Of a DNA stretch of 64,000 nt, positions 9,001 through 55,540 are shown piece after piece (positions within the stretch are counted from its first letter, which is position 1; every line of letters begins with the position of its first letter). Both the position numbers and the translations under genes were made by a program. Source of the stretch: an archaeon (GTDB lineage Archaea; Nanobdellota; Nanobdellia; Woesearchaeales; GW2011-AR15); the NCBI GenBank assembly GCA_043826135.1, contig JBDRQT010000005.1, forward strand, positions 70,255 through 134,254, given 5' to 3'. The notes below the pieces were generated by a model. It had not been told where the DNA came from and made no database searches. It saw only the letters and a program-made list of their open reading frames with translations.

Positions 9001-10758
9001 AAATTTGAAATAATTAGTACTGCTGAGCTTGCAAACACCTGTTTTGTAAAAGTCCGTTCAGTTGATGCAATCGAAGGTGTAAACAGGGACTGGTATCTGA
9101 AATTCGATGATGTGTTTAGCGCAATACTTTCATGCAACATAGATTCAGACTGTGGAGGGAATTATGAGTGCAGGAACAATCTTTGCTATGAGAAAAAATT
9201 CGCACTCGTCGGACTTTATGATGTTCCAATAACGAAATTTGCTGAGGCAAAAAGTTATGGGGCTGAGCACCTAGGAACTTATTCAACGGACAATAGTCTG
9301 GGAGCAGAAGACTTCCTAAGATTGAATGATAATTTGTTCAAGACTTCTGGAAACAATCTTGATATTGAAAAAATAAGCCTGAACTATGAAGATGGAACAG
9401 CTTACTGGATAATAGATGATATATGCAATGATGAGAAATGGGATCTGTCTATTAATGATTTGACAGATTTATACACTGAACTAAAAACTCAAGCAAGTTC
9501 ATACGTTATGATAAATTTTGAGGATCTTAACTGTGCACTGGATTACCTCAATTTAGCAGATAAGCCAATAGCTGATGTTGCTATGTTTAAGGTTGATGTC
9601 GCGAGGCCGGATGATTACATAGGAAAGCAGTCAGCACTCGCTGAAGCAATAATAAAAGAGAGTATTGATAAAAAAATCCCAATGAAGATCTTGCCAATTG
9701 TAGATGTGAGCGAGGCAACTCCTGCATGGATATCAAAAACAGGTGAAGACCTGCTTGGAGAAAAAACAACAGGCGGGCTGTCTCCATTCTCAGGCCTGCT
9801 TTTTGGGCCGTATAATAAGATAAGACCGGAAGAAAAAGATGTACTCAGCTATGTATTCTGCAAAGCAAAGGAGATTTATCTTGAGCAGGATTGCAGCGCT
9901 GATCCCGCAGACCTGGTTGAAGAAGTGAAGATTGCATTTGTCTCCAATCTTGCAGATACAAATATTCTCTCTTTGGCACAAGGAAAAGATGTTGACCTGA
10001 TTGTATTATCCGGAAACATCGGAACACCTCTGTTCTCCAGCTCTATACCTTATCTTGGTGCACTTGGGCTTCTGGATAATGAAAATACACAATTCACAAG
10101 GATACCTGAGGGGATGGAGTGCTCTGGCCAGGATGGAGATATGATTGAATGCGAATATAAAGGAATCACCTTTGTTGTTTCAGGGGTCGGGATCTCTGCA
10201 ACATCAGGCCATGAAGATTTCATCAGATCAAGCATGAATGATCTTTCAGGTTGGGGAGTCTGTGTCTGGAGCAAGAATAGTTATCTTCTGAGAACTAGCG
10301 CAAAAGCGAATGCTGAAACACTAGCTCTAAAATATTATGATCTGTGCCTGGCAAAAGGAGCAATCATCGCAACAGGCTATGATCAAAGTTATGCAAGGAC
10401 AAAGACTATTACAGGTATGAGCCAAAATATTATGTATGCAGGATCACCTTCAATCATAACACTCGGGCGCAACAAGACAATGGTTTTCAATTCAGGCCTT
10501 GGAGGCATGGGATCAGATAGGTTTGACTGCAATCGGGGATACGGATACTGGGCAAGCATTTATACCAGCAATTACTATCTCAAGAACGGAATAGATCAGC
10601 AGAAATCATGCACAACTGATGCAGTTGCAAATTTCAAGAATGGAGCACTGTTTATCACATTCAACTATAATGAGGATCAGACAAAGGCTCATGGTGAGTT
10701 CATCACTGTTGATAATCAGGTGATGGACACCTTTGAAATCTCACGCGAAATCTCGTAA
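6037..10758 (+). CDS. Giant (1573 aa) Cys-rich surface protein, paralog 1: pilin-like N-terminus, shared N-module, internal TM block, Pro-rich linker, degenerate metallophosphoesterase-like C-terminus
   Basis: Uninterrupted 4.7-kb ORF. N-terminus MVVGNKSQATLYVIIGLTLVLVIGFF. Blocks EGCVRQTVIDAEIKYGLHRIW and GIWVGLPTEVDAANNKITTYITHFS are shared with the ORFs at 10805, 40794(-) and 47138. Confidence 0.85.
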   Translation: MVVGNKSQATLYVIIGLTLVLVIGFFLSLNAQQRSQEIASVADSRSALDAERFSLDYYIEGCVRQTVIDAEIKYGLHRIWAAPEIEAYIENNLGNCLDDFRYFKERGYLVNNGNLDAKVDISREAVAVTIDLPVYLKKGEMEITYDSKVYRLPLTSLERLNLNGETRIVSSDGTLILEIPEGTVVTVKGQKVDQVGVQLLDRHFNAMPNDVVAGMLAFNGIPHKAEFSKPVKVTKYYQEKDIPIYVREEELRLGTYDSDVGIWVGLPTEVDAANNKITTYITHFSQMATVKDCGTEGEPAVITNTIVRQECTGCEEKWIKDLTSEIKYSLPSPKDYSIDKTQKLGFVPECFGEAPVISPDTGITKEDTDTLKKIIAIDEADFDHCFGFCSDTSNKDKKDPKCNCDLFYYKDYFRQKGLQDKGGLPEGGTDSQKQIIFTLEDGKFQGYDIYDVDFKEKGAACVAALEKDFVVDSVGNNINVDTTGVLTEDNDKAAIAISVDYCSDKDTCQIVKPIFIKQEPKLRFGFQVINSPSEDSPDTCISGGAKVEIAGVGALNAVYGCSGSESGKIDFVRGVCMKCDGQIWQKQDMKECFPEGKCVGALMGVVRWNDKNCEECMSSGEWKKLETPEKCVSSCEEPQDSVALNPTKAIIDITGRPGDPPENEENNIDWKKVAGWAAITVGVVAIGVGIALALPVVLAATGLMAAGGLAFLPALAIAGYGISSIAIPGLIIGGGIITGTAGGFILANSQDVTDQNVQLASSPQQDIQPDASQVNSPAPGAASDSRCLSGSITQPDIPPEQTLTDGAKDCNEAGNVKIYTLLTASWAETEDCKGKGCEAGKCKTEATAEPVKCGKENELICNPGETCDPTTKECKKPDTGSTSSTSSAPTGSLPTVPPSTPPPAAPVAAAPSQLGGASACSPACSTDQDCVDGTCVDKPKTCIEGNPTSPCKDINDASVQGKQFTVPGSINTLDMDFCDTFGSYSGEDKFEIISTAELANTCFVKVRSVDAIEGVNRDWYLKFDDVFSAILSCNIDSDCGGNYECRNNLCYEKKFALVGLYDVPITKFAEAKSYGAEHLGTYSTDNSLGAEDFLRLNDNLFKTSGNNLDIEKISLNYEDGTAYWIIDDICNDEKWDLSINDLTDLYTELKTQASSYVMINFEDLNCALDYLNLADKPIADVAMFKVDVARPDDYIGKQSALAEAIIKESIDKKIPMKILPIVDVSEATPAWISKTGEDLLGEKTTGGLSPFSGLLFGPYNKIRPEEKDVLSYVFCKAKEIYLEQDCSADPADLVEEVKIAFVSNLADTNILSLAQGKDVDLIVLSGNIGTPLFSSSIPYLGALGLLDNENTQFTRIPEGMECSGQDGDMIECEYKGITFVVSGVGISATSGHEDFIRSSMNDLSGWGVCVWSKNSYLLRTSAKANAETLALKYYDLCLAKGAIIATGYDQSYARTKTITGMSQNIMYAGSPSIITLGRNKTMVFNSGLGGMGSDRFDCNRGYGYWASIYTSNYYLKNGIDQQKSCTTDAVANFKNGALFITFNYNEDQTKAHGEFITVDNQVMDTFEISREIS

Positions 10759-10804
10759 ACTTTATATACCACTCCATCTGTTAAAACATCAAGGTGGGGT
10801 TTCT

Positions 10805-13800
10805 ATGAAAGCACAGATGAGTATTTTTGTAATAGTTGGTATTGTGATCACAATAGTTATCGGCAGCTACTTCATGATGAGGTTAACCGATCAGCAGAAT
10901 AATCTTGGCCAGGCATCTGATTATGTTTTTGAGATGGGTTCTAAGCAGAGCTCTCTAAATGCTATAATGCAGGAATGTCTGAAGCAGCATGTGATTGCAG
11001 GTGAGCTTGAGTACGGGTTGCACAGGACGTGGAGCACCAGTCCCATCAGAGAATATATCAAAACGAACTTACCGGGCTGTATCCAGACTTTTGTGACACA
11101 GCAAGGATATAAGATGACAGCAGGAGAGCTCGAGGTCGTTGTTGATATCCAGCAGGAATCAGTTGTTGTTGATGTCCACTACCCCATCATGCTAGTCAAG
11201 CAGGACACGATTCTGAGATTTGAGCAGCAGACATATACTTTCCCTAGGATGACGATGGAGAAGATTGACCCTGAGAAGACAACAAGGGTTGTGTCGGCTG
11301 ACGGAACAATGATTGTGGAGATTCCTCCGGGGACAATTGCAACACTTAACGGAGAGCCAGTTGAGACTGTTGGTTTGAAACAGTTGGATAGAGAGTTTAA
11401 TGGTCTTAGAAATTCTGTTACAGGGGGTATGCTCGCATTCAACGGATATCCACACGGAACTAGGTTCTCCAAGCCTATAACTGTAATTCATTTTTATAAA
11501 GATGAAGATGTGCCAGTTGGAGTTAATGAAGAAGATTTAAGACTTGGTTATTATGATGACGTCTCAAAAATATGGAAAAGCTTGCCAACCATAGTTGATC
11601 CAGACAAAAACAAGATGGTTATGCAGACAATTCATTTTTCAGCCCAGCCAGGACTTCTTGTTCAATGTACAGAAGGTGCCACCTGGACTGCCATTACAGA
11701 GAAACTTGTTTATGAAAGATGCACGCCAGCTGAATGGCACCCTGATAAACAGATTTATGCGTGTCAGGATACAAAGCATGCTACCCCTACAACTACACCT
11801 GATGTATTATGGATAAAACAAGATGGGATTGATCCTGCATTATGCAGTGAAGGGAATGGATGCGGTTCTGAATGTCTGCCTCTTGATTCATGGAAAAGCA
11901 CAGCAGCCGGTCTCGGAGACTGTCATAAGTCAGTGGGTGGAGGAGAGACAGGCTGCGGAACATGCGAATGCTGTGACAATAAAGATGAAACAGATGAATC
12001 ATACTACAAAATGCCTATCTTTTATTATGCAGCAAACCCAACAGGAACATATACAGGCTATCCGGTTAACTTTGCAGGAGAAGGCAATTCATGCCAAGCA
12101 GGAAATCTTGAAGATGATAAAGTTAGTGTCCAGGAACTGCCATTGTTTGCAGACAAAGCAGAAGCAGGGGAAAATGCAAATAATATAAGAGTAGTAGCAA
12201 AAACATACAACGGAGAAACAGATTGTGCTATCTCTCGTATGGATAGCGGGATAACAGATATGCAATTCACATTTGATGAAGCATGTACTGATAGCCAGCC
12301 AAATTCATACTATGCAGGCTATGCAGAAATAACTGGTCAGGGATTTGGAGCAAAAGGCGCATTATATAGTTGTGAAGGCGTTGAACCCGGTACAACTCAA
12401 GATATGCCTCTCGCGACAGGTGGAGATGCTAATAAGATGGTCAGTGCTACTTGCACTTGTGGTGCTGCTAGTGCAGCTATTGCCTCAACAACTTTAGCAG
12501 GAGTTACAGGCACAACAGGATTTGGTTCTCAAGTTGCAAATGCTGGAGGTGTTGAACCAGGGTTAGGTTCTGAAGCTAGTTCAGGACCATGTGTATGGAT
12601 ACCCGCGGAAGGTGAAAAATGTGGTTCAGCAACCTGCACAGCAACTCAGACATGTGATAAATCAGCTGATCCAAATTCAGAGGATCCAGATCCCGCTAAG
12701 CAAGATCAGGATTCATGGGTCTGCAAGGATTCATCAGCAGGCGGTGGCGGCGGTTCAACATGCACCCCTCCATGTACAGGTCGTCAGACTTGTAAAGATG
12801 GAAAGTGTGTTGCAGGCGGCGGAGGCGGTGGTGGGGGAGCTGAATGCGGAACATCAAACGGGCCATGCGATATACCTGATTTTGATACACGTTTGAAAGG
12901 AAAATCATTTACAACTGACAAGGTAATAGACACAAGAGACAAGAAGATGTGCGATTCTTTTGGTGATCTTCCCTCAGGGTCAAAGCTCATTATAATGGAC
13001 CATGTCAAAAGAGGAGTGCAATGTTGGCTCTTTGTTGAACTCCAGCAAGTCACAGATGGTTTCAAGCCAGATCTTTATATTAGATATGATGATGTCAAAC
13101 ATCTCTTGCCGAGTGAAGGTGATGACAATGAGACAAAACCTTGCGAAAAAGATAGTGACTGCAAAGGCGGAAGATTCTGCCATCCTGTCAACAAAACATG
13201 CGTCGGAGCTGGAAGCCTGATACCTATTGTCGGTTTCTATGATGTGCCAACTGATAAGCTTCAGGAGGCAAAGGACTTTGGAGCAGGAACGCTTGCGTTC
13301 ATGGACAGCAATAATGAGGGAAGCATCCCGGTATCTGCTGCAAAGGAACCATTTTCTTTTGAAGTGATTACAAGGCTGAATGACACTGCATATAATAACA
13401 ACAAGGCAATAGCTGATTATGATTTTTCAAGCCATCTGAACAATGAATCAATCGGATACTGGATTCTAAGCGAACCTTGCAATACAGACAGATGGTCTCT
13501 CACATATGATAACATCGGCGGCCTCTATGATAAATTCAAGACAGCAAGCAAAAAGCCGGTGTTTGTCGATTTTGCCAATCTAAACTGCGCTCTTGATATG
13601 TTCAGCAGCGTACCTGATATCAGGGTTCTTGCTGATTATATCATGTTTGACATTAGAAGCACAATGACAAACGATGATATCAATGCAGAGCTAAGGCTTG
13701 TTTATGATGTAGGCAACAAAGCAAGGCTTGCCCAGGGAAATGCAAGAATTATAGCGTTTTTCGATATTGACGGCGCATCTCCAAAATGGATTAACGAGAC

Positions 13801-14872
13801 TGCCAGGAAGATATTAGAGAATGAGGATATAGACGGAATAATTATCTCGCCTTATTCAAGAGTTAGCCAGATGCAGTCAGATATCGGTTTTAGGAATACA
13901 ATTAATGAAGTGATGTGCCTTGCAAACCAAAAATACAGAGACATCCCATGTGAATTTGTGGCAGAGCTGCCTGATACACCACAAGAATATAAGGTAGTGT
14001 TCATCGCAAACCAGGGAACTAGTCAGGATGCATCAGATGTGCTAAGTCTGATTAACAGTAAGGAAGCAGATCTTATCATAATAGACGGAAATATGGGCTA
14101 TGACAAGCAGCCGTTTGAATGGGATAATCTCATGACTGAGACAAGTATACCTGTTCTTGCGACAATAGGTGATATGGACAAGGAAGACTGGCCATCGTAT
14201 GTCAGTCTGATTGAGCCGTATGATGATTCTGTTGAATGCACAGGGACTGCAGGAGACAAGCATGTTTGCAGGTTCAATAATGTGACATTTATTTTATCCG
14301 GAGTCGGCATTTCAAATACTGATGGCAACATTGATTTCATAACCGGTGCTGCAACAGCAGCAGATACGGCATGGAAATTCTGTGTCTGGCATAAAAGCAA
14401 TGATATGCTAAGAGTAAGTGACAGGAGTTCAGATGATACACTTGCACTCCCTTATTATAAGGCATGCTTAGATGCTGGAGCAGTAATTATCACTGGCTAT
14501 GATAACCAATACGCAAGGACAAAGGAAATAACCAACTTGGAAGATTCTGTCGGTTTCCTTGATGTGAATAGCGAGTTTGAAGTCAGGCCAGGCCATTCAA
14601 TTATTATTGACAATGGTCTTGGCGGCTTTGGAAGCGATCGGTATGACTGCGGCAAGGATGCAAACAATTGGTGGGCATCTATCTACACTCCAAACTACTA
14701 TATGAATAACGGACTACAAGTGTCAAAATCTTGCACTGAGGATACTACATCAGGATTTGCTCCTGGTGCATTGTTCTTCACCTTCAATTACCAAGGCAAT
14801 GAGAATAGGACACACGGAGAGTTCGTGAATGTAAATAATGTTGTTGTAGACAGCTTTGACTTGGTCAAATAA
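10805..14872 (+). CDS. Giant (1355 aa) Cys-rich surface protein, paralog 2: same architecture as 6037-10758 but without the internal TM block
   Basis: ATG at 10805 (MKAQMSIFVIVGIVITIVIGSYF) is preceded by AAGGTGGGG. It is collinear with paralog 1 (QECLKQHVIAGELEYGLHRTW; KIWKSLPTIVDPDKNKMVMQTIHFS; YWILSEPCNTDRWSL; GAVIITGYDNQYARTK). Poly-Gly runs lie around 12730-12850. Confidence 0.85.
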   Translation: MKAQMSIFVIVGIVITIVIGSYFMMRLTDQQNNLGQASDYVFEMGSKQSSLNAIMQECLKQHVIAGELEYGLHRTWSTSPIREYIKTNLPGCIQTFVTQQGYKMTAGELEVVVDIQQESVVVDVHYPIMLVKQDTILRFEQQTYTFPRMTMEKIDPEKTTRVVSADGTMIVEIPPGTIATLNGEPVETVGLKQLDREFNGLRNSVTGGMLAFNGYPHGTRFSKPITVIHFYKDEDVPVGVNEEDLRLGYYDDVSKIWKSLPTIVDPDKNKMVMQTIHFSAQPGLLVQCTEGATWTAITEKLVYERCTPAEWHPDKQIYACQDTKHATPTTTPDVLWIKQDGIDPALCSEGNGCGSECLPLDSWKSTAAGLGDCHKSVGGGETGCGTCECCDNKDETDESYYKMPIFYYAANPTGTYTGYPVNFAGEGNSCQAGNLEDDKVSVQELPLFADKAEAGENANNIRVVAKTYNGETDCAISRMDSGITDMQFTFDEACTDSQPNSYYAGYAEITGQGFGAKGALYSCEGVEPGTTQDMPLATGGDANKMVSATCTCGAASAAIASTTLAGVTGTTGFGSQVANAGGVEPGLGSEASSGPCVWIPAEGEKCGSATCTATQTCDKSADPNSEDPDPAKQDQDSWVCKDSSAGGGGGSTCTPPCTGRQTCKDGKCVAGGGGGGGGAECGTSNGPCDIPDFDTRLKGKSFTTDKVIDTRDKKMCDSFGDLPSGSKLIIMDHVKRGVQCWLFVELQQVTDGFKPDLYIRYDDVKHLLPSEGDDNETKPCEKDSDCKGGRFCHPVNKTCVGAGSLIPIVGFYDVPTDKLQEAKDFGAGTLAFMDSNNEGSIPVSAAKEPFSFEVITRLNDTAYNNNKAIADYDFSSHLNNESIGYWILSEPCNTDRWSLTYDNIGGLYDKFKTASKKPVFVDFANLNCALDMFSSVPDIRVLADYIMFDIRSTMTNDDINAELRLVYDVGNKARLAQGNARIIAFFDIDGASPKWINETARKILENEDIDGIIISPYSRVSQMQSDIGFRNTINEVMCLANQKYRDIPCEFVAELPDTPQEYKVVFIANQGTSQDASDVLSLINSKEADLIIIDGNMGYDKQPFEWDNLMTETSIPVLATIGDMDKEDWPSYVSLIEPYDDSVECTGTAGDKHVCRFNNVTFILSGVGISNTDGNIDFITGAATAADTAWKFCVWHKSNDMLRVSDRSSDDTLALPYYKACLDAGAVIITGYDNQYARTKEITNLEDSVGFLDVNSEFEVRPGHSIIIDNGLGGFGSDRYDCGKDANNWWASIYTPNYYMNNGLQVSKSCTEDTTSGFAPGALFFTFNYQGNENRTHGEFVNVNNVVVDSFDLVK

Positions 14873-35946: not shown

Positions 35947-38900
35947 TCACTTGGTTTTTATCTGCCAATATTTGTTGGCATCATTTGTGCAGGAATATAT
36001 TTTGCCGCCGACTAATAGTTCTTTGCCACGAGCACTATCATCACAGGATACATAGTGTCCCTCACTACAAAGTTGATAGTTGTTGTTTGGATAAAGCAAA
36101 GGATTAGAGGATGTACATTTTGCTTCACATATTGTTCCCCAACTATGTGTAACAAGATCTTTATTATTGTCACTGCAAACGCAATTAAACTTTCCATCAT
36201 CTTTCTGGCCAGATGGGCACACTCTAACCCAATGAGGCGAAATACCATCGCAATTGAAAGTGACTCCATTAAGTGTTACTGAATGAGTGAGATCACCCCA
36301 ATTACTGCATGTAATACAAACGCCATTTGTATTAACTAACCCACCTGATTCACAATCTTGACTCGGAGAGAGAGTTTGTTCGGATGAAGGTTGGGCACCA
36401 GAATCGGTTACACATTTTCCACCATCAATTTTTTCGGTTGCAGCGCAACATAATACCAACTTATTATTATTCCAACAACTTTGTTTTGCATCTGTGATGA
36501 ATGTTTCTGAGCATTTATCAGATGAAGGGGATACATCGCATGGGTTGCTTATAGTGGGAAGATCTTGACCGGTAAGGCTTGATTGAATACATTGTACACT
36601 GTTTCCAAATGTATGAGCAGCAAAACCATTCGCAGTATCGCATCCACATCCGTCTTTTTTCGGACCGGGAATTGAATTTATTGCGCATTGCTTGCAAGAT
36701 TCATCTTTGTATACAGCATTACCTTCGCATTCACATATATTTAATTCTGCATTCCATGTAGCACCGTTGCAGACAGGTGTTGGAGTTGAAGTTGCTGTAG
36801 ATGCCACTCCTGCTTTTATGGTACAGGTAGTAGCAGTATTACCAACAAGTTCATAATTGTCTGGGCAACATACCACAACATCACCATTTATACAGGTCTT
36901 ATCTGCACCAGTCAAGAAAACATTATTCTTACAGAATAATCCATGACCAGAATCTCCATTGCCACACGCTTCTCCAGTATAGGAAGGCAGTTCCGTAGCA
37001 CGTTCTGCAAGAGTATTATAAACGCATTGGGTTTGTCCATTTGATAATTTAATATGCTTATACCCACTATTACAAACACACTCTCCATTTTGAATAGATC
37101 CCTGTATAGTGCAATCACCTTCTTTTAAATTAGTATCAGCAGGCGCACCAGAAGCAGATGCAGCACACGTCCATAACTCCCCAGTCAAATATGTAATTGC
37201 TGCATTTGGATCACTACATTGATAATAGTTGGGATCTCCATTCACCTGGCATTGGTATCCTCCGCTAACTATAATGTCTCTTGTCTTTTCTGAAGTAGAT
37301 ATGCACTCAGGCAGATCAAGAATACACGATCTTGATGACCTGCCATCGTCATGCACTTCTTTGAGTGTGTAGGGTTCCACACACTGTTGTTTAGGTGTGC
37401 TTCCGTCCAGACATTCTTCCTGGTTTCCTCCTGAGATTTCCAATGTCGTTGCACCTGATTCACAACCTGGTAAATTTCTATCAATTATCTCTTGAGGCAC
37501 GCAATAACCATTCTGATATTGTGTATTTAGATCACATTCATATTTCACAACCTGGCTTCCTTTAAGCTTATTGCCTTCATCATCTGTAAGAATGTGCAAG
37601 CATGCGTGAGAGCCATCAACCTGCGGTTCAAATGCATTATTGCTGCTGCAGTCACCCGTGTCTTTTAGTGAACCGCTCCCAAGACCGCTCTTTGGGACAC
37701 ATAGTTCCCCAGATTTTATGTATGTATCATCGCATTCATACATGGGAGTTCCATCTTTGCTGCATCTGTGGCTGTTAGCTGTTTCTGTGGAGACTAAGTT
37801 ACTAACATCTTTACACGAATATTTATCTTTAAACTCCTGCAATGAAACACAGCCATCTTCGGTTGAATACTGATTAACTGCACAGCAATATAATATCTTA
37901 TTCTCAGTTGGGCTTCCAGATTTTTTGTCTGTGCATTTGTATTGATAATTGCTTGGCTGGAAGACTGAGCACCTTCCGGAACCACTGCTAACAGTAGTAG
38001 CCTGTGCTTCTTCTGGACATGGCATGACAGCAGTTTTATCTTTGCCATCATTATTGTAATCACAGAGTCCATCACCATTTGTTCCAAGGAAGTAACTTGT
38101 GCTGGGTACTCCAGGAGCCATAGTTGTTTCGCAGCACACACTAAGTGGGAATACCTGCCTCTGACCACCAGGAGTGGGTGTGCAATAGCATGCACCCTTC
38201 ATTTTTCCATCTTTATCATAATTCTGGACAGTATTAGATGGTCCATCATTTTGTCCATAGCAGGTAAGGCCGCTTGCGCTTTGTGAATAGTAGCTGGGGA
38301 AGGTTGTAGCTATAACATGCTCACAATATTTTGGATTATTGTCTGGACTATCAGTTGAACCATCATTCCATTTTCCCTCATCAATTAAGGTATTCTTTGC
38401 CGCGGTCATATCAGAATTCAGATTATGAAATGTGACAAAACAACAGTCGTTAAATTCAAGAGGTATTTTTTTACCATCACTATCATGGCATAGGCATTCA
38501 CCAATAAAACTTCCATCATCCGCTTTTCTATAATTGCCGGTTTTCAAATCAGGAATATTTCCATTCGGTCCATCCCATTCCCCATAACAATTTTTATCAA
38601 ACAAAGTTCCTTTTTGTTTATCCAGGAACTCATCGTAGGTTTCATAAAAATGCGGGGGCTCGACAACATTGACACCATCATCAAAAAATATTTTCGCCCT
38701 CACCTGTGGGCAGACATTCTTTTTATCAGGAAATTCATCATTTGTGTATTTTGCATACAATATGTTTTCAGTGCGAGCATTGAACCTAATTTCACTTGGA
38801 GCAGGCGGATTTGGAAGTGGTATAGAGTTCAGGGTTCGCTCTTTTATGATATTATTTTGTAAGTCGTCTGGATTGAAATAAACTAGAACACCATTCTGCC

Positions 38901-40794
38901 CGAAATCATCATATAATGGTTCAGCAACAGTATAGCCTATATTGAAATTCTCTGGCATGCACGCATTGCTTTTCGAAAAGATATAGAATTGGATATTGCC
39001 GGATCCCTCAAAAGCAGTGTCATCGGAAAGATATGCAGCTCGCTCTTCACATTCAGGCAATCCTGAATTTCCGTCTATCTTAATCATACTATACAGTTCT
39101 AGTTTAGCTTTTGAAGTTTCTTCACTGTTCGGATTGCTAGAATATGAGTTTTTATAGTTATTATATAAAACAAGTAAAACTGGGAATGATTTCTCAGAAG
39201 TAATACCTTTTTCCTTAAAATATTCTTCAAGTGCAGTAGCATCTGGAATTGATTTTGTATTGAATTCAGTATCAATGGATTTAACTTTATCGTTCAGTCC
39301 AAGACCATACATCTGGCATTCCTTTTCGGTTTGGAATGCAGTCAAATCAGGCGCTGAAACACTTTGGACATAATATCCAACAGGTAGAGACAATGGTTCT
39401 AAAGATATCCAGATGGTTGTGTAATCTTTATATGCATTGAAGTCAAATGTCCTGCCTCTCATCTCAAAAGGTGCCTCAGGAGTATGGAAACCTGAAGGAT
39501 TTACTTTAATATCAGCTGTATAACGCTTATCTTCGGCCGCCGCTGGCTGAACCTCAGTTAGTGTATCACCATGATTTTCGAATGTAACTTCGACTGGCGC
39601 AGGCAAAATATTAACAGGCAATTTGTCAGAAGCCGCAATTTCTCCATCTAACTTAGAATCATCGTTATTTTTCTTAACATAGTCCTCAAAAGCCACGGGA
39701 TCAAATTCATTCATCTTCAATTCATCAATCTTTTTTGGTGACACGTAATATTTAGTCCCATCCAATGCTGTGTATTTGGTCCACTCACAATATTCCTTGT
39801 TCGTTTCTTCTTCTGCCCTTGGGTCATATCCTGTAGGCCAATATTTTGGTAGATAAATGAATCCTAAATCCATCTCAGCTGGTTTTTCCCTAGTCAAACT
39901 TTTTTCTCCATCGTCGGATTTAACATAGCAGTCAATCACGATCCCATAATATGAAAAATGCTTGATTGTAGCGGAGACTGAAGATTCGTCCGCAGACAAG
40001 CTGCTTGGTATTGAATTCCAGATACCAGTCTCTTCATTATAATAAGCAATTGATAATTTATTTAAATCATATCCATCAGGCAGATCCTCAGGTCTGAAGC
40101 GTATGCTGAGTTTCATCCCATCATTTATTACAGCACCGCTTGGCTGAAGATTATAGATAGTATTTCCAACTACTATGCCGTTGAATTGGTTATTGAACTT
40201 TGCATCTTCAATTTTTATAGATACCATCTCAACCGGTTTTCCATCAACTGTAACTTCAGTATTTTCAGGCAAGCTGAGAATAGCATTTTTATCAACAGAT
40301 TGCAGGCTTAATTCCTTGTCTGCTATCCCCTTATTTAGGGAAACAAAGTTGGTTCTTCCTGTGTTATAAGCAAATTCATCAAAAACATATTCAGATGAGT
40401 CTCTTTTTAATATGAATGGATAATTCAGTGTGGCAATAACCTTTTCATCACTTATTTCAAGGTAAGTAGTCGGAAATTTTTCCTCTAACTGATATCCTTG
40501 ATTCTCATAAACAGAAAGGTCAAGGCAAGTATCTATCTTTTCTGTCACATAACTCTCAATTAGATTGCCAGAGCCGTCTAATCCATATAATAAAACACCT
40601 TCATCAGTCAGCTCTTTGAGGCATCCTTCAGCATATTTCTCAACAGAATCTTTTATATTTCCGCTGAGGCCGAGCGAGGAGATAGACGAACTAATCTCCT
40701 GCTTGGGTGCATTCATGATTGAATAAGTACCAATCCCAACCAGCACCAACAACACAACACCGACTATGACAAAAGGAGTAACCTGCGCTTTCAT
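35947..40794 (-). CDS. Giant (1615 aa) Cys-rich surface protein, paralog 3: pilin-like N-terminus, shared N-module, and ~1000 aa of EGF-like Cys-rich repeats
   Basis: MKAQVTPFVIVGVVLLVLVGIGTY is preceded by GGGTGGGG. Shared blocks are YAEGCLKELTDEGVLLYGL and GIWNSIPSSLSADESSVSATIKHFS. The C-terminal two thirds are dense in C-x-C / CxxxxC patterns (e.g. NGECVCNSGYKHIKLSNGQTQCV). Confidence 0.85.
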   Translation of the reverse strand: MKAQVTPFVIVGVVLLVLVGIGTYSIMNAPKQEISSSISSLGLSGNIKDSVEKYAEGCLKELTDEGVLLYGLDGSGNLIESYVTEKIDTCLDLSVYENQGYQLEEKFPTTYLEISDEKVIATLNYPFILKRDSSEYVFDEFAYNTGRTNFVSLNKGIADKELSLQSVDKNAILSLPENTEVTVDGKPVEMVSIKIEDAKFNNQFNGIVVGNTIYNLQPSGAVINDGMKLSIRFRPEDLPDGYDLNKLSIAYYNEETGIWNSIPSSLSADESSVSATIKHFSYYGIVIDCYVKSDDGEKSLTREKPAEMDLGFIYLPKYWPTGYDPRAEEETNKEYCEWTKYTALDGTKYYVSPKKIDELKMNEFDPVAFEDYVKKNNDDSKLDGEIAASDKLPVNILPAPVEVTFENHGDTLTEVQPAAAEDKRYTADIKVNPSGFHTPEAPFEMRGRTFDFNAYKDYTTIWISLEPLSLPVGYYVQSVSAPDLTAFQTEKECQMYGLGLNDKVKSIDTEFNTKSIPDATALEEYFKEKGITSEKSFPVLLVLYNNYKNSYSSNPNSEETSKAKLELYSMIKIDGNSGLPECEERAAYLSDDTAFEGSGNIQFYIFSKSNACMPENFNIGYTVAEPLYDDFGQNGVLVYFNPDDLQNNIIKERTLNSIPLPNPPAPSEIRFNARTENILYAKYTNDEFPDKKNVCPQVRAKIFFDDGVNVVEPPHFYETYDEFLDKQKGTLFDKNCYGEWDGPNGNIPDLKTGNYRKADDGSFIGECLCHDSDGKKIPLEFNDCCFVTFHNLNSDMTAAKNTLIDEGKWNDGSTDSPDNNPKYCEHVIATTFPSYYSQSASGLTCYGQNDGPSNTVQNYDKDGKMKGACYCTPTPGGQRQVFPLSVCCETTMAPGVPSTSYFLGTNGDGLCDYNNDGKDKTAVMPCPEEAQATTVSSGSGRCSVFQPSNYQYKCTDKKSGSPTENKILYCCAVNQYSTEDGCVSLQEFKDKYSCKDVSNLVSTETANSHRCSKDGTPMYECDDTYIKSGELCVPKSGLGSGSLKDTGDCSSNNAFEPQVDGSHACLHILTDDEGNKLKGSQVVKYECDLNTQYQNGYCVPQEIIDRNLPGCESGATTLEISGGNQEECLDGSTPKQQCVEPYTLKEVHDDGRSSRSCILDLPECISTSEKTRDIIVSGGYQCQVNGDPNYYQCSDPNAAITYLTGELWTCAASASGAPADTNLKEGDCTIQGSIQNGECVCNSGYKHIKLSNGQTQCVYNTLAERATELPSYTGEACGNGDSGHGLFCKNNVFLTGADKTCINGDVVVCCPDNYELVGNTATTCTIKAGVASTATSTPTPVCNGATWNAELNICECEGNAVYKDESCKQCAINSIPGPKKDGCGCDTANGFAAHTFGNSVQCIQSSLTGQDLPTISNPCDVSPSSDKCSETFITDAKQSCWNNNKLVLCCAATEKIDGGKCVTDSGAQPSSEQTLSPSQDCESGGLVNTNGVCITCSNWGDLTHSVTLNGVTFNCDGISPHWVRVCPSGQKDDGKFNCVCSDNNKDLVTHSWGTICEAKCTSSNPLLYPNNNYQLCSEGHYVSCDDSARGKELLVGGKIYSCTNDANKYWQIKTK

Positions 40795-47137: not shown

Positions 47138-48541
47138 ATGCGAAAAGCACAGCTGTCTGTTTTTGTAATTTTTGGACTATTAATTATGCTCGCAATCCTT
47201 ATCTTTCTTAGTAATCCACCTAAGATTCAAAGCTCTGTGATTGAATTCTCTACTGAACTTGGCAGGCTCGGTCCATATTTCAGGGAATGCTGCAAGCTCT
47301 CGATGCTGGACGCTAATTCAAGATATGGGCTCCATTCTTCCACAAAGGACGATTATGAGCCATATCTGATCGCAAAGGTTGATGATTGCATGTCTCCATT
47401 TCTTCAGGATATTGCTGTCAGGGGGATGGATGTCGAAAGGGTGGATACTCCGTCTGCACTGCTTGAGATAAATGACCTTAATGCGATCGTGACCATAAAA
47501 TATCCTGTGAAGGTTTCCACAAAATCCGACTCTTACATATTTCCTGATTATGTCCAGAAATTCGAGAGAGTTACCATTATTGATGAAAAGAACATCAATA
47601 ATGCAGTCTCAGCAGATACAAATTTTATTTTGTCAGCACCAGACGGGATAAGAATTTATGGACCTTACGACGAGGAATTTGCTAATCTTTACATTAAAGT
47701 GTCAGACAAGAGAGAGATTGGATGCGATGAACTTCTCGGAAATCTGGTATATGGTGTTTATCCTTTGGGCTATTATTCAGATGAACCTATAACAATCAAG
47801 CTCGATATAGATAAGATAGCGCCCTGGCTTACAGACAGGGACAAATTAAGGATAGCTTGGCAGGATCCGGATTCAAAGAAATGCACTTTCCTCGAGAATA
47901 GCAAATATAAAGATGGAATGCTCCAGGCTGATACAAAGTATATCACTTTCTTCGGGATTGGCAAGCCCTCAGTTTCCACATCAGGATATCCCTATCAATC
48001 TACAGGAGAAGGAACATCCGGTTCATTCAACACACCGGCAGGTGATTTTGAGCCTGTTCAAGGGACCGCGCAGGTAATATATGACGGAATAAAAGCAGAG
48101 ATGGGCGGTACATATTCTCTTTTTAAGAATAATGAATGCGTGCCTCCCGGAGCATATTGTTTTACCGGCTGGTCTGCAAGATGCCCAAACGGAGAAGCGG
48201 CAATATATTGCAATGATGCAATCTACAGCATTGATGAAGGTGCACTCAATACTTTGTTCCGGCATGAGATAACGCATAATCTGCAGCAGAATAATAAGTG
48301 CGCTTTTGATACAGCAAAATCCGAATGGGGTGCTGAATATTATTCCGGAAGCAATTACTATAATTTCGCGATAACATCTCCAACGATAACAAGGTCAGGG
48401 ATGTCTGCCGCAGAAGTCGGCACAGAATTAGAAAAAGCAGGATGCATAAAGTCTGAACTCCTCGATGCTGCTTTTTGCAAAGGCGGAAATATCGGGTCAT
48501 ATACGCAAAAATGTGATGTCGAGATTACAGGTTACAGTTAG
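47138..48541 (+). CDS. Short (467 aa) member of the giant-protein family: pilin-like N-terminus, shared N-module, and a C-terminal HExxH (putative Zn-metallopeptidase) region
   Basis: MRKAQLSVFVIFGLLIMLAILIF; YFRECCKLSMLDANSRYGLH; LLEINDLNAIVTIKYPV; LRIAWQD...DTKYITFFG. HEITH at nt 48263-48277 lies in LNTLFRHEITHNLQQ. Confidence 0.75.
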   Translation: MRKAQLSVFVIFGLLIMLAILIFLSNPPKIQSSVIEFSTELGRLGPYFRECCKLSMLDANSRYGLHSSTKDDYEPYLIAKVDDCMSPFLQDIAVRGMDVERVDTPSALLEINDLNAIVTIKYPVKVSTKSDSYIFPDYVQKFERVTIIDEKNINNAVSADTNFILSAPDGIRIYGPYDEEFANLYIKVSDKREIGCDELLGNLVYGVYPLGYYSDEPITIKLDIDKIAPWLTDRDKLRIAWQDPDSKKCTFLENSKYKDGMLQADTKYITFFGIGKPSVSTSGYPYQSTGEGTSGSFNTPAGDFEPVQGTAQVIYDGIKAEMGGTYSLFKNNECVPPGAYCFTGWSARCPNGEAAIYCNDAIYSIDEGALNTLFRHEITHNLQQNNKCAFDTAKSEWGAEYYSGSNYYNFAITSPTITRSGMSAAEVGTELEKAGCIKSELLDAAFCKGGNIGSYTQKCDVEITGYS

Positions 48542-51244: not shown

Positions 51245-51295
51245 GCTATAACACATCGAAAATTATATAAAACGACGAGCCATATTCTCTGTAGG

Positions 51296-51811
51296 ATGAA
51301 AAAAAGGGGGCAGGTTTCAGTAGAGTATATACTTATTGTCGCGATTGCAATGATGATAATTCTTCCAGGGATTTTTTTGTTCAGGAACTATATCTTCGAA
51401 TCTAATGACCAAATCCTTGAATCAAGACTGACGGAAATATCGCTTAGCCTTCTTGGAAAAGCCAGAAAAATGTATTACTACGGCCCTCCTTCAAAATCTA
51501 CTCTGCAGCCGGACATGCCACCGCAGGTAGATAATTTTTATATACAGAGATTTGGCGACGAATATTTTCTTATCTTTGTCATCCTCACAAATAACGGAAG
51601 GCAGAATGTCGAATTTTCGTCAGAAGTTCCTATTGTTGTAGGAGAAAAAGACATTGTCTGCGATATTCCTTGCGAAGGAACATGTGAATGTTTTACAGCA
51701 AGGCATTATTCAGAAGGCCTGAAGAATCTTCAGGTGGAAGCATCTGATGATTGTCCAGCATCTCCATTCTGTGTTATCATTACAGAGATATCACCGGATT
51801 TGCCAGAATGA
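51296..51811 (+). CDS. Class III signal peptide (archaeal type IV pilin-like, DUF361-type) protein 1
   Basis: MKKRGQVSVEYILIVAIAMMIILPGIFLF shows R-G/Q cleavage-type motif, QxSxEY and a hydrophobic helix. First gene of a 5-gene coupled operon. Confidence 0.7.
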   Translation: MKKRGQVSVEYILIVAIAMMIILPGIFLFRNYIFESNDQILESRLTEISLSLLGKARKMYYYGPPSKSTLQPDMPPQVDNFYIQRFGDEYFLIFVILTNNGRQNVEFSSEVPIVVGEKDIVCDIPCEGTCECFTARHYSEGLKNLQVEASDDCPASPFCVIITEISPDLPE

Positions 51812-52365
51812 AAAATGCCCAGATCATAAGCATGGATTTTATCTTGACATTTGTGATATTCATGTTCGGCATGTCAATTTTTTTCTTCGCGCTAAATGAC
51901 AGCTACTTTGCAGTTTCTCCCGGTCTTGATGTTAGCGCTGATTTGGTCTTTTCAAAGCTGGAAAACATTTATGAACCTGAATATAGTTTCATAAGATCAT
52001 TTCATTTCGACAAAAATTTTATCTTTCTGCTTCTTACGAATTATAATGCCTCGAAAGCATATGAACTTTATTTCCAAGAATATGAAAATCCAGCATCTTT
52101 CTCAAAAATCGACTACTGTTTATTTTTGATGAATTCAACAAATGGGAGAAAAATAAATCTTAATTTTGCAGCATATAAAACAACCCGGGATAAATACGAA
52201 ATTATTATGGGAGATGATTCAAAGTGTGGTGATAATCCACAGCAGACTTATGTAGAGCTTCCTAAATGCCCAAAAGGTGTTGAATCAGTGATTGCATCAA
52301 AGCCAGTACTTTATGAAAAAGGGATACTCCAGTTAAATGTGCTTATGTGCGCGAAAAAAAACTAG
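51808..52365 (+). CDS. Pilin-like protein 2 (class III signal-like N-terminus)
   Basis: The ATG at 51808 overlaps the previous stop (ATGA). MKNAQIISMDFILTFVIFMFGMSIFFFAL. Confidence 0.6.
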   Translation: MKNAQIISMDFILTFVIFMFGMSIFFFALNDSYFAVSPGLDVSADLVFSKLENIYEPEYSFIRSFHFDKNFIFLLLTNYNASKAYELYFQEYENPASFSKIDYCLFLMNSTNGRKINLNFAAYKTTRDKYEIIMGDDSKCGDNPQQTYVELPKCPKGVESVIASKPVLYEKGILQLNVLMCAKKN

Positions 52366-52369
52366 AAAA

Positions 52370-52894
52370 ATGAAAAAAGGATATATCTTTTTGCTTGACG
52401 CCGTGTTCGCGATAATGATACTTACCGTTGGATTCATGATAATTTCTTCAAGCAAACCAAAACTGAGCGATGAACTCCCATTATCAACAATCTCTGAGAA
52501 TATCTTCGGGATAATGTCCTCTGTGAAGATAAATGAAATCTGCACAGGATGCGCTTGCTCCAGCCAAGTATTGTCTGATTACTGCAGCCATGGGAAAATC
52601 AAGAATCCGGATGAGACTCTGCTTGATTATATTGGCGAGATGCACAATGCAAGCATATCAGATGAAGAGATTAAAAATTTCTATCTTGACATCATCTCAA
52701 ATTTTGTTAGAGATGACCTCTATCACACAGACTTAATAATTGATGGGCACGTAGTATATCCGAACACAGGAAAGAATACCAGCCTTGAACTAATCTCCGG
52801 GAAAAGATTGGCATTTGGTTACAATGAAGACACACTGGCAGGAACTGTAAAATATTGGGGACCATACATTATAGAGGTGAATGTCTGGAAATGA
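52370..52894 (+). CDS. Pilin-like protein 3 (class III signal-like N-terminus)
   Basis: ATG at 52370, 4 nt after the previous stop. MKKGYIFLLDAVFAIMILTVGFMIISS. Confidence 0.6.
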   Translation: MKKGYIFLLDAVFAIMILTVGFMIISSSKPKLSDELPLSTISENIFGIMSSVKINEICTGCACSSQVLSDYCSHGKIKNPDETLLDYIGEMHNASISDEEIKNFYLDIISNFVRDDLYHTDLIIDGHVVYPNTGKNTSLELISGKRLAFGYNEDTLAGTVKYWGPYIIEVNVWK

Positions 52895-53739
52895 AAAAAG
52901 CAGTGTTCTTTTCGATTGTAAGTGTACTTATTGTAATTTTGTTTGGCAGTATGATCTCATTAATTTCCGATTTCAGTACAAAGCAAAGAGAAAATGATAT
53001 TGATGTCACAAGAACCAGAATTAAGGTGCTTAATTCACTTGTACAAGACATGAATGACAATTATTTTGAGAAACTCGTGCATGTGGCAGCGAAAAACGCT
53101 ATAGTAGGTCTTTCAGATTATTACCATGATGCGCCAGGAGGTCAGGACCGGATAAAAAAACCTCTTGCTGCAGCAGTCAGTGAAGTAATGGATGATGGAA
53201 TACTTGTCGAACCAATCTATGCAGGCTCAATAAAACATAATCTGACTCAACCCAACGGACTGGGAGAGTCATATATGAACAGGGAATACACACTAAATAA
53301 TCTCATTCAAGGACTTAAAAAAAAATATTCTAACTTGGGCATGAATATTAATGAACTCACAGTTACAGTTGGGACTGAAGGAATTACCCAAATCGATCCT
53401 TTTCATTTTGAAGTCGAAGCAGATATAGTTTATGATCTTAGTAGTAATGATATACTCACTCGTGCATTTTGGAGAGGAGTAGCTACAAAAAAAGTAATTG
53501 TCTCAGTCTACGGCGTTTATGCATACGATAGTCCATTAGACAGCGGGAAAGAGCATAAAAATAATCCTATAACCAGCGAATGGATCATAGATAATGGACC
53601 AAGGCCGACTGAGCCATCTCTACTGACCAAACTAAGCAAACAAAACCCTACAGAGCTTGATGAGGAAATTGGTTTGGGCATCTGTTCTCCTGATTTTGTC
53701 TATGGCGGAAAAACTTGTTTTGATGATGTGATAGCATGA
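52891..53739 (+). CDS. Pilin-like protein 4 (class III signal-like N-terminus)
   Basis: The ATG at 52891 overlaps the previous stop (ATGA). MKKAVFFSIVSVLIVILFGSMISLI. Confidence 0.55.
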   Translation: MKKAVFFSIVSVLIVILFGSMISLISDFSTKQRENDIDVTRTRIKVLNSLVQDMNDNYFEKLVHVAAKNAIVGLSDYYHDAPGGQDRIKKPLAAAVSEVMDDGILVEPIYAGSIKHNLTQPNGLGESYMNREYTLNNLIQGLKKKYSNLGMNINELTVTVGTEGITQIDPFHFEVEADIVYDLSSNDILTRAFWRGVATKKVIVSVYGVYAYDSPLDSGKEHKNNPITSEWIIDNGPRPTEPSLLTKLSKQNPTELDEEIGLGICSPDFVYGGKTCFDDVIA

Positions 53740-54638
53740 GAAAATCCCAAATCAGTTTTGAATTTATTATCATCTTTGCCTTAATTTTTTTTGCTCTTAT
53801 TGGATTTGTCTATATCATCAATGAGAGGCTGTCTGAGCTTGCAGAGGAAAAAGAGTATATTGTTATGAAGAGCCTTGCTAATTCCATCATAAATGAGGTT
53901 GTGCTTGCAGCATCAGTGAGCAATAATTATATGCGAAAATTCGAGATCCCGACAAGGATAGAAGGGGAAAAATATAATATTAGTATAATTGAAAATGAAC
54001 TGGACATCAGGCTTCTTGAAGAAGGAAAATTAAGAAAACAATATTATGCAACATTACCTCTTCCTGTGAAAGGGACATTCATAAATCAGATCAATTCCAG
54101 CAATACAACACATTGCATCACAAAAAATGATTATGATGGAGTTAGGATATCATGGAACCAGGCAAGCATTGATTCAAGTTCAGAAATAGTTTCTCCTGGA
54201 GATAGATTTGAAGTGTTCCTTGCTCTTCATTGTGTTGAGAATGTCCTAAGTATAGGTTTCACAATAAATTATGAACAGGAAAAATTAAAAGTGATTGATT
54301 CAGTGCCAGTTATCAGATCCCAGGAATTCAAGGATAAGAATCCTGTTTTCCCTGATTTTGCATTGGAATATACTTATCCAGAAGGTTCTGAGTTTGTTGA
54401 TCAGACAATAGGACGATATTCTTATGGGGTGCTTGGGAAAAGATGCGTTCCCGCAAATGGCAATTTCGCCAGAATCACATTCGAAGTGCTTGGCAGTGCG
54501 CCGGCTGGAGAAACAACAATTAGTTTTGATGATTCTTTCGAGGATAATATAAGGATTCTCGATTGCCACACCAACAGCCTTACAAAAGAAGCACTTCCGC
54601 ATTCGAAAAAGGATGCAATAATCCAGATTACAAGTTAA
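53736..54638 (+). CDS. Pilin-like protein 5 (DUF361-type class III signal) with a cohesin-like C-terminal domain
   Basis: ATGA overlap with the previous gene. MRKSQISFEFIIIFALIFFALIGFVYII. C-terminus SIGFTINYEQEKLKVIDSV...ANGNFARITFEVLGSAPAGETTISFDDS follows the cohesin-domain pattern. Confidence 0.6.
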   Translation: MRKSQISFEFIIIFALIFFALIGFVYIINERLSELAEEKEYIVMKSLANSIINEVVLAASVSNNYMRKFEIPTRIEGEKYNISIIENELDIRLLEEGKLRKQYYATLPLPVKGTFINQINSSNTTHCITKNDYDGVRISWNQASIDSSSEIVSPGDRFEVFLALHCVENVLSIGFTINYEQEKLKVIDSVPVIRSQEFKDKNPVFPDFALEYTYPEGSEFVDQTIGRYSYGVLGKRCVPANGNFARITFEVLGSAPAGETTISFDDSFEDNIRILDCHTNSLTKEALPHSKKDAIIQITS

Positions 54639-54718
54639 ATTACCTAGGAAATATTTATATACATGATTAATTGAGTTCTATGATATTACGATTTTGATTC
54701 AGATAAAGAGGTGATTAG

Positions 54719-55522
54719 ATGTTAATATTCGGAATAAATCTGCCACTGCCGGAGCTATTTTTAGTTCTGGTATTAGTTTTCTTATTTTTTCTTGTGATGA
54801 TACTGATGCAGCTTCAGAAGCTTTCGAAGATGACAGTAGAAGAGCAGAAAGACTTAGAAGAGTTAGAGCGCATGGAGCATGATCAGATGAGTGACATTGA
54901 AGAGATCAAGCGATTTGAGGAGAAGGAAGCAGGGAACCTGCTTGAGTTCCAGACAGGGATAGCGGACCTTGAGGAGGATACAGACACGATATATCTGAAG
55001 AGGCTAGCACCTGACCTATACAAGATACAGAACTACACATTATGGGCGCTGTCAAAGAACATGGCACCCTCTCAGATAAATCAGAATCTTTTGTCCAGGG
55101 GCTGGAAAGACAACAAGATGATAGCGATGATAATAGAGGACACGCTGAAATACACAGGACACATTAAGAAAGGCGATATTGACCAGAAAGAGCCAGTAGC
55201 ATCTCCGGAGGAATCGCAGGGCGCAGGTGGCTTATCCAAGAATAAGTCAATCCAGGTGGTGGAGACGACTCACATAATCAAGCCTGTTAGAGTAGTGACG
55301 ATGAAAGAGACTACCAGAAGAAGGAAGTCGAAAAAGAAGCCAAAGAAATCAACAAAGAAGGCAAGAGTCAAGAAATCAAAAGATGATTTCAGGAGCATAG
55401 AAAAAGAGCTCAGCAAGCTTGAAAAAGACCTGAAGAAGCCAGGCAAAAAATCCAAATCAGCTAAAAAGCCCAAAGCTGCGCCTTCCAAAAAGAAACAAAA
55501 AGCAAAAAAAAATAAAACTTAA
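54719..55522 (+). CDS. Membrane-anchored protein with an acidic coiled-coil region and an extremely Lys-rich tail (hypothetical)
   Basis: AGAGGTGAT SD lies upstream of the ATG at 54719. TM LFLVLVLVFLFFLVMILM. The tail is RRRKSKKKPKKSTKKARVKKSK...KKPKAAPSKKKQKAKKNKT. Confidence 0.55.
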   Translation: MLIFGINLPLPELFLVLVLVFLFFLVMILMQLQKLSKMTVEEQKDLEELERMEHDQMSDIEEIKRFEEKEAGNLLEFQTGIADLEEDTDTIYLKRLAPDLYKIQNYTLWALSKNMAPSQINQNLLSRGWKDNKMIAMIIEDTLKYTGHIKKGDIDQKEPVASPEESQGAGGLSKNKSIQVVETTHIIKPVRVVTMKETTRRRKSKKKPKKSTKKARVKKSKDDFRSIEKELSKLEKDLKKPGKKSKSAKKPKAAPSKKKQKAKKNKT

Positions 55523-55540
55523 TTTTTTTTTATCTTTTCT

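Follow-up and report, generated by a model that had tools for sequence, protein, structure and literature searches.

We analysed a 64,000-nucleotide stretch of DNA (the window) from an archaeon of the Woesearchaeales (lineage GW2011-AR15; GenBank assembly GCA_043826135.1), which occupies positions 70255-134254 of contig JBDRQT010000005.1 (C5) in a genome of 1.88 Mb that is assembled in 69 contigs and 95% complete. Our subject is a five-gene operon, O1 to O5, whose products most likely form a set of type IV pilin-like proteins and whose last member carries a cohesin, through which, we propose, a giant adhesin may be docked. The five open reading frames (ORFs) all lie on the + strand and span 51296-54638; positions without a contig name count from the first letter of the window, and an arrow within a motif marks the predicted cleavage site.

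51263 to 51270, + strand: TATA-box-like TTATATAA, read from the sequence, 25 nt 5' of the O1 ATG, with an A-rich stretch resembling a B recognition element just upstream.
51296 to 51811, + strand: O1, 171 amino acids (aa), pilin-like with a canonical class III signal (Q+1, E+5), Pfam Class_IIIsignal PF04021.
51808 to 52365, + strand: O2, 185 aa, pilin-like N-terminus and a Cys-containing globular part, orphan family (alignment A5).
52370 to 52894, + strand: O3, 174 aa, pilin-like N-terminus, orphan family (alignment A6).
52891 to 53739, + strand: O4, 282 aa, pilin-like N-terminus whose helix starts without an acidic residue, placed by an AlphaFold2 (AF2) model and a paralogue match.
53736 to 54638, + strand: O5, 300 aa, made of two modules.
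53736 to 54158, + strand: pilin module of O5, residues 1-141, beginning MRKS↓QISFEF, with Q+1, S+3 and E+5 invariant (alignment A1).
54159 to 54542, + strand: cohesin module of O5, residues 142-269, Pfam Cohesin PF00963.

Inspection of the letters at each junction placed ATGA overlaps at O1/O2, O3/O4 and O4/O5, and at O2/O3 the O2 stop codon TAG is followed by AAAA, a 4-nt gap, and then by the O3 ATG. The element TTATATAA would probably serve as an archaeal promoter, giving a transcript with little or no leader. Because it precedes O1, the junctions that follow are coupled, and a second TATA box and Shine-Dalgarno sequence appear only before the next gene (O6, below), O1 to O5 look like a single transcription unit. 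Each product begins with a short basic leader and a small residue at -1, followed by a long hydrophobic helix: the N-termini read MKKRG↓QVSVEY (O1), MKNA↓QIISMDF (O2), MKKG↓YIFLLDA (O3), MKKA↓VFFSIVS (O4) and MRKS↓QISFEF (O5), and about 20 hydrophobic residues follow in every case. The leader motif was kept family by family in 13-16 orthologues, in which the residue at -1 is always G, A, S or T with K or R before it. A rough search of the whole genome for [KR][GAS]↓x followed by hydrophobic residues flagged 84 of 3845 ORF frames, including four of the five operon genes.

In tblastn searches, 13 or more separate genomes (loci L012-L027) showed O1-O2-O3-O4-O5 as a colinear series with identities of 25-54%. 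Overall, the genes and their order recur in at least 14 Woesearchaeota genomes besides this one, which rules out an assembly or annotation artefact. The O5 relatives belong to metagenome-assembled genomes (MAGs) of Candidatus Woesearchaeota and to archaeon GW2011_AR15 (L019), whose chromosome is complete, and GatD was frequently found upstream of the operon in these relatives.

The subunits differ in how readily they are recognized. O1 matched Class_IIIsignal (PF04021, UPF0333) at 24.2 bits, over the gathering score of 23.7; its K3, R4, Q6 and E10 are invariant and its Cys conserved across 15 orthologues, and its AF2 model (mean pLDDT 88.6) has a 59-residue helix (residues 4-62) followed by a beta domain. 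The O4 model (pLDDT 82.8, pTM 0.78) likewise begins with a long helix, of 79 residues (2-80), and continues as an alpha/beta domain. In the O2 family, Q5, S8 and four Cys are invariant and D10 nearly so, and in the O3 family F7, D10, G21, C58 and C63 are invariant. These two families are weakly related over their N-terminal 75 residues (HHalign probability 82%, E 1e-5); HHalign of the O4 and O3 families gave no significant result, and a relationship between them was dropped. Conserved Cys occur in each of the five families, which fits extracellular domains. The pilin module of O5 is homologous to the O1 family (HHalign probability 96%, E 3.9e-9). The conserved leader and helix in five families, the Pfam match of O1, the helix models of O1 and O4, and the homology between O1 and the O5 N-terminal module together indicate that O1 to O5 most likely make up a set of type IV pilin-like proteins with class III signals, akin to minor pilins or to a pseudopilus.

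A further protein of this genome touches the O3 family: C29:25606-28317 (+) encodes 903 aa with the N-terminus MKKG↓VFFSLDALFAVILIG, which matches the N-terminal part of O3 (E 9e-8), and this protein, too, may be a modular pilin with a minor-pilin chassis.

O5 differs from its neighbours in carrying a second domain. Residues 142-269 matched Pfam Cohesin PF00963 with an E-value of 3.4e-10 and 40.7 bits, over the gathering score of 24.1, and the O5 family profile (A1) matched many solved cohesins (for example 3l8q_A at 4.3e-7). A whole-genome search returned this cohesin and no other. The N-terminal half gave weaker matches, to DUF7266 and to Class_IIIsignal at 13.8 bits, under the cut-off. We sampled 201 genomes spread evenly over the order; the O5 pilin module was present in 132, joined to a cohesin in five of these and encoded as a stand-alone ORF of about 130-170 aa in the other 127. 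Among 1.84 billion representative (cluster) proteins we found 679 relatives. About 23 had E ≤ 1e-30 and most of these matched along most of the length; the weaker relatives were mostly modules of 125-170 aa, with a few long proteins bearing other C-terminal parts. O5 is thus a modular pilin: it joins a pilin module of about 130 aa, which is widespread among the Woesearchaeales, to a cohesin grafted at the C-terminus, and its cohesin is the key to the mechanism proposed here. As roughly two in three sampled genomes of the order have the pilin module and the cohesin graft is confined to a few families, always with a dockerin partner, the graft is suggested to be a recent innovation whose evolution can be traced.

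One orthologue is extended further: at L018:8995-11175 (MAG SI047_bin43) the O5 protein is 726 aa long and consists of the pilin module, the cohesin, four DUF4215 repeats and a Laminin_G_3 domain. Such a tri-modular pilin would dock a partner and also bind sugar.

The candidate partner of the O5 cohesin is a giant secreted protein that, in this genome, is encoded on another contig.

C53:60621-65027, on a different contig from the operon: dockerin giant, 1468 aa, 137 Cys, Sec-type signal, orthologue of the giants that follow O5 in relatives.

Residues 457-512 of this giant are the single dockerin-like match in the genome, and the protein is homologous over its full length to the giants directly 3' of O5 in relatives. 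There, the gene or genes after O5 encode Cys-rich giants with Sec signals; these range from 877 to 2058 aa, contain 77-142 Cys and MopE motifs, in some cases also LamG, and an O6 homologue comes next. In 11 orthologous giants the dockerin segment has the duplicated form CDxNxDGxVDxxD...YDxNxDGxVDxxD, so that both EF-hand-like repeats of about 22 residues are present, and in a comparison of the segment profile (A4) with solved structures, dockerins ranked first (4fl4_A at 3.7e-5, 2vn5_B at 5.9e-5). Cohesin and dockerin were neighbours in at least 11 loci. Moreover, the five best dockerin matches among the 201 genomes (1e-20 to 3e-10) fell in exactly the five genomes with a cohesin-bearing O5, and in four of these five the dockerin lay 0.3-1.9 kb downstream of O5. 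The dockerin was also kept when the cargo changed: at a distant locus in a groundwater Woesearchaeota MAG (L029:3154-5551), the protein after O5 is a PD40/Kelch beta-propeller instead of a Cys-rich giant, and it has an N-proximal dockerin at 35.7 bits (E 9.6e-9), over the Pfam threshold. Given one cohesin and one dockerin per genome, their adjacency, their co-occurrence and the retention of the dockerin through this cargo swap, we regard a cohesin-dockerin pairing as the most economical reading of these sequences.

Any filament would need machinery encoded elsewhere. No match to T2SSE, T2SSF or Peptidase_A24 was found anywhere on contig C5 (the whole 150 kb). Elsewhere in the genome there are four T2SSE ATPases (on C21, C4, C28 and C67), three loci that combine an ATPase with two TadC genes, and a single Peptidase_A24 (C7:2535-3407, 290 aa, E 1e-10) in which both catalytic Asp motifs (D20 and GGGD at 79-82) are present. 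At the C21 locus, the ATPase and two TadC genes adjoin four pilin-like genes, among them C21_5139 (135 aa), a paralogue of O1 (E 1.8e-13); a 126-aa protein that resembles the N-terminal module of O5 (2e-11); and C21_3300 (321 aa), related to O4 (E 8e-4 directly, and to 3e-9 using orthologues). The surroundings of short O5-like matches were then fetched in 12 other Woesearchaeales genomes. In nine of the 12, an ATPase and at least one TadC gene lay no more than a few kb from this short set, with both TadC genes wherever the fetched stretch extends far enough; the adjoining ATPase was 56-66% identical to that of C4, a PilA-like pilin was often beside the set, and an A24 peptidase was so once. 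These arrangements indicate that the O1, O5 and O4 families are the conserved minor-pilin-type parts of the canonical Woesearchaeal type IV pilus locus. Since the paralogous short set adjoins ATPase and TadC genes both on C21 and in nine of 12 genomes, the operon in the window is a duplicated and enlarged copy of it. The C4 locus lacks a minor set of its own but encodes, besides its ATPase and two TadC proteins, a PilA-like pilin (C4:42438-42929), and is a candidate machinery partner of O1 to O5.

The C67 ATPase (770 aa) is 81% identical to one that lies about 4 kb upstream of O1 in L012 and L020 (called as a 757-aa gene in L012). As these are the only relatives with an ATPase in the fetched flanks, we did not assign it as a dedicated ATPase of the operon.

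The initial annotation of this DNA had described five coupled genes with pilin-type N-termini, joined by three ATGA overlaps and a 4-nt gap, and had taken them for a major-plus-minor pilin set or a pseudopilus with no assembly machinery nearby. The letters and the orthologue motifs confirm the gene arrangement, contig C5 indeed gave no match to the three machinery families, and the minor-pilin or pseudopilus assignment has become the most likely one through the O1 Pfam match, the helix models and the paralogues that lie beside machinery. It had also proposed a genome search for an A24 peptidase, a secretion ATPase and a platform protein, naming the lack of a prepilin peptidase or assembly ATPase as a refutation; all of these components are present on other contigs, which removes that objection.

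We consider it moderately probable that O1 to O5 contribute to a type IV filament or its tip complex and that the O5 subunit docks a giant adhesin. In this model, the single A24 peptidase (C7:2535-3407) would cut O1 to O5 after the small residue behind the K/R leader, and a type IV pilus-type ATPase with two TadC proteins, encoded elsewhere (the C4 and C21 loci are candidates), would pull the mature proteins from the membrane. Held together by their N-terminal helices, O1 to O5 would then build either a short pseudopilus or the complex that primes or tips a filament, and the pilin module of O5 would carry the cohesin grafted at its C-terminus. The cohesin would bind the internal dockerin of the giant (~457-520) non-covalently, probably in a Ca-dependent manner, so that the Sec-secreted, disulfide-rich giant of 1468 aa would be hung on the filament as an adhesin, possibly for adhesion to a host cell. 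A broader version, that in some Woesearchaeota the type IV filament is a cohesin-bearing scaffold, is more tentative and in our estimate falls a little short of even: a duplicated minor-pilin set would put the socket at the tip or surface, and interchangeable, separately Sec-secreted dockerin cargo would plug in non-covalently. Such cargo so far includes giant adhesins rich in Cys, giants with a LamG lectin and a beta-propeller.

Several results weigh against the docking of a giant on a filament, and they concern both its parts. On the filament side, an ATPase lay within the fetched flanks of O1 to O5 only in L012 and L020. Searches of Pfam and NCBIfam with O2 to O4, singly and as families, returned nothing consistent, and NCBIfam had no match for any of O1 to O5. 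Foldseek comparison of the O1 and O4 models with the PDB gave best E-values of 0.06 (O1) and 0.02 (O4) with no pilin among the matches, and the sequence profiles of both returned noise only from the same database. Against the FlaFind motif, O1 alone fits strictly and O2 to O5 are each off at one position (S at -1 in O5, N at -2 in O2, Y at +1 in O3). With no machinery adjoining the operon, leaders off the strict class III consensus in O2 to O5, and O1 and O4 models that resemble no solved pilin, the five proteins could instead be a membrane-anchored scaffold, their helices kept as signal anchors or forming a very short, bindosome-like stub, with the O5 cohesin tethering the giant at the surface as an anchoring scaffoldin does. 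The Sulfolobus bindosome (PMC3047682) offers a precedent for class III signals on surface proteins that are not filaments. We nevertheless think such a scaffold unlikely, while taking it seriously, because throughout the order loci of the canonical ATPase/TadC/PilA kind include paralogues of O1, O5 and O4, because Q+1 and E+5 do not vary within the O1 and O5 families, and because the set resembles the minor-pilin sets of clade-1 archaeal type IV pili, which include at least five class III proteins (PMC4858521).

On the docking side, the dockerin of the C53 giant scored 15.4-21.1 bits against PF00404, under the gathering score of 22.9 (17 bits for the giants of L016 and L019); weak dockerin-like matches also occurred in 22 of the 196 genomes without a cohesin-bearing O5; and in this genome the giant lies apart from the operon, paired with a copy of O6. 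Non-cellulosomal cohesins and dockerins without known partners are reportedly common. The sub-threshold score and the lack of linkage would suit an explanation in which O5 binds something else, such as a component of the host's or the cell's own S-layer or a glycan, and the dockerin-like segment is just a structural Ca-binding module of the giant. That the genome encodes a single cohesin and a single dockerin, that the two are adjacent in at least 11 loci, that they strictly co-occur in the order-wide sample and that the dockerin is kept when the body of the cargo changes all argue against it, and we regard it as highly improbable.

The window also encodes giant proteins of its own, whose starts resemble class III signals.

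6037 to 10758: class III-start large protein, beginning NKS↓QATLYVIIGL.
10733 to 14872: class III-start large protein, beginning MKA↓QMSIFVIVG.
35947 to 40794, - strand: class III-start large protein, beginning MKA↓QVTPFVIVG.
47138 to 48541: class III-start large protein, beginning MRKA↓QLSVFVIFG.
Outside the window, recognized by the same N-terminal motif: C5:48087, C5:139328, four genes on C43, C55:7040, C60:5235 and C67:7646.

Together these belong to a family of about 14 large proteins of 235-1615 aa with the common start [KR][AGS]↓Q(I/V/M)(T/S)x(F/Y)VI(I/V)G; Pfam searches with two of the giants gave no match. The initial annotation had noted such N-termini on the giants of the window, which we saw at all four positions, and had reasoned that a shared N-terminus implied a common pathway of processing and display, so that the giants might be presented by the filament. 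Our data support the display of a giant in principle, with a different cargo: the giants of the window carry no dockerin, and the likely cargo is the Sec-signal giant of C53. The step from shared N-terminus to common display is not supported, as the same kind of signal is the sole link between these giants and the operon. A version of the idea that needs no cohesin, in which the window giants and their roughly 14 paralogues are displayed, through their own pilin-like N-termini, by the filament or by a shared class III pathway, draws on the [KR][AGS]↓Q starts with their hydrophobic stretch, on the family member that adjoins the 770-aa ATPase on C67, on another that directly follows O5 in L028, and on the existence of very long proteins with an O5-like module (P0122, 1254 aa; P0148, 1373 aa). 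Its members lack not only a dockerin but also conserved synteny with the operon, the giants that follow O5 in relatives have Sec-type signals, and a common peptidase need not mean a common filament; we therefore rate it as distinctly unlikely. By their starts, these proteins might themselves be very large modular pilins. As cohesin cargo they were ruled out by the genome-wide dockerin search.

The gene that follows the operon bears on how the giant came to be separated from it.

54719 to 55522, + strand: O6, 267 aa, not a pilin, with an N-terminal transmembrane anchor, an acidic coiled coil and a Lys-rich tail; a conserved neighbour.

O6 starts 80 nt after O5 and is preceded by its own TATA box and a GAGGTGA Shine-Dalgarno sequence; by the positive-inside rule, the bulk of the protein is predicted to be cytoplasmic. 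In nine loci the distance from O5 to a downstream O6 homologue is 4.4-7 kb, and in relatives O6 always comes after the dockerin giant. This genome has a second copy, C53:59812-60612 (-), of 93.6% nucleotide identity, right after the dockerin giant and inside a glycosyltransferase cluster, and the duplicated stretch corresponds almost exactly to the gene (window 54711-55537). Because the two O6 copies are nearly identical, one after O5 and the other after the giant, their arrangement implies a recent duplication or relocation of a module made of the giant and O6. The giant and O6 are thus a separable module, which in this genome appears to have been copied elsewhere and lost from the operon.

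The arrangement can be compared with four kinds of known system. Among bacterial modular type IV pilins, Streptococcus sanguinis PilB (a pilin with a vWA domain) and PilC (a pilin with a lectin) carry grafts that are thought to be exposed at the tip and adhesive (Raynaud et al. 2021, PMC8179133), and the word 'cohesin' is absent from the main text of that paper. Like them, O5 joins a small class III pilin module to a C-terminal graft of non-pilin origin; unlike in these bacterial proteins, where the graft binds its target directly, the O5 graft would be an adaptor for a separate secreted protein, in an archaeal host.

The second likeness is to minor-pilin tip complexes. As with FimU-PilVWXE plus PilY1 of Pseudomonas aeruginosa and GspHIJK of the type II secretion system, the genes alone suggest four or five minor pilins that are transcribed together, would prime assembly and occupy the tip, and would present a separately exported adhesin of >1000 aa, and as in those sets one subunit (here O4) is without the conserved acidic residue. 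PilY1 is held through a C-terminal domain that touches the minor pilins and not by a cohesin-dockerin pair. We detected no sequence or fold similarity, and the analogy rests on established knowledge together with PMC8179133 and PMC4858521. The third likeness lies within the archaea: the clade-1 (Epd-type) pili of Methanococci, Methanobacteria and Thermococci comprise an ATPase, two TadC proteins and at least five class III minor-pilin-like proteins; their major pilins are often encoded elsewhere, and large putative adhesins in the locus carry DUF2341 (Makarova, Koonin & Albers 2016, PMC4858521). The system described here shares with them an ATPase with two TadC proteins, a five-gene set and the QxSxEF (DUF361/UPF0333, PF04021) N-terminus, a likeness in architecture alone, and differs in that the partner giant carries a dockerin instead of DUF2341. 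Neither DPANN, Woesearchaeota nor cohesin is mentioned in PMC4858521.

The fourth comparison is with cellulosomal and non-cellulosomal cohesin-dockerin systems (the cohesins of ScaB and SdbA, the dockerins of GH9 enzymes and CelS): O5 matches the cohesins, and the segment of the giants matches the dockerins with both Ca-loop repeats. Unlike in those systems, the anchor of the cohesin is a pilin module in place of an SLH domain, sortase signal or scaffoldin, and the dockerin is internal and bracketed by Cys, with a Cys-rich MopE/LamG-type giant or a beta-propeller as cargo in place of an enzyme.

Full-text searches of the literature turned up neither a cohesin-bearing pilin nor an account of this locus, and the mounting of a large adhesin on a pilus-like structure via cohesin and dockerin is apparently an unpublished arrangement. 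If true, it would be a third way to functionalise pili, besides modular pilins and PilY1-type tip adhesins, and would extend the cohesin-dockerin pair from cellulosome-type enzyme display to the loading of giant adhesins on type IV filaments. It would also carry the idea of the modular pilin into the archaea and provide a natural plug-and-socket system for pilus display, and could be a host-attachment device of DPANN episymbionts. The locus bears on how DPANN archaea attach to their hosts and how archaeal minor pilins work, and it offers a specific hypothesis, open to test with two small recombinant modules.

Two further observations concern contig C5 and the relatives. About 22 kb before the window, C5:47380-47643 (-) and C5:47741-48013 (-) encode tandem pilin-like proteins of 87 and 90 aa with M[RK]KA↓QSISINT... 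starts and Cys-rich heads, similar in size to the stand-alone major pilins of about 70 aa in clade-1 archaeal type IV pili. Finally, several MAGs that carry the operon (L020, L022, L023 and L024) bear the third-party annotation title 'uncultured Methanosarcinales archaeon', which, judged by gene content, is probably wrong.

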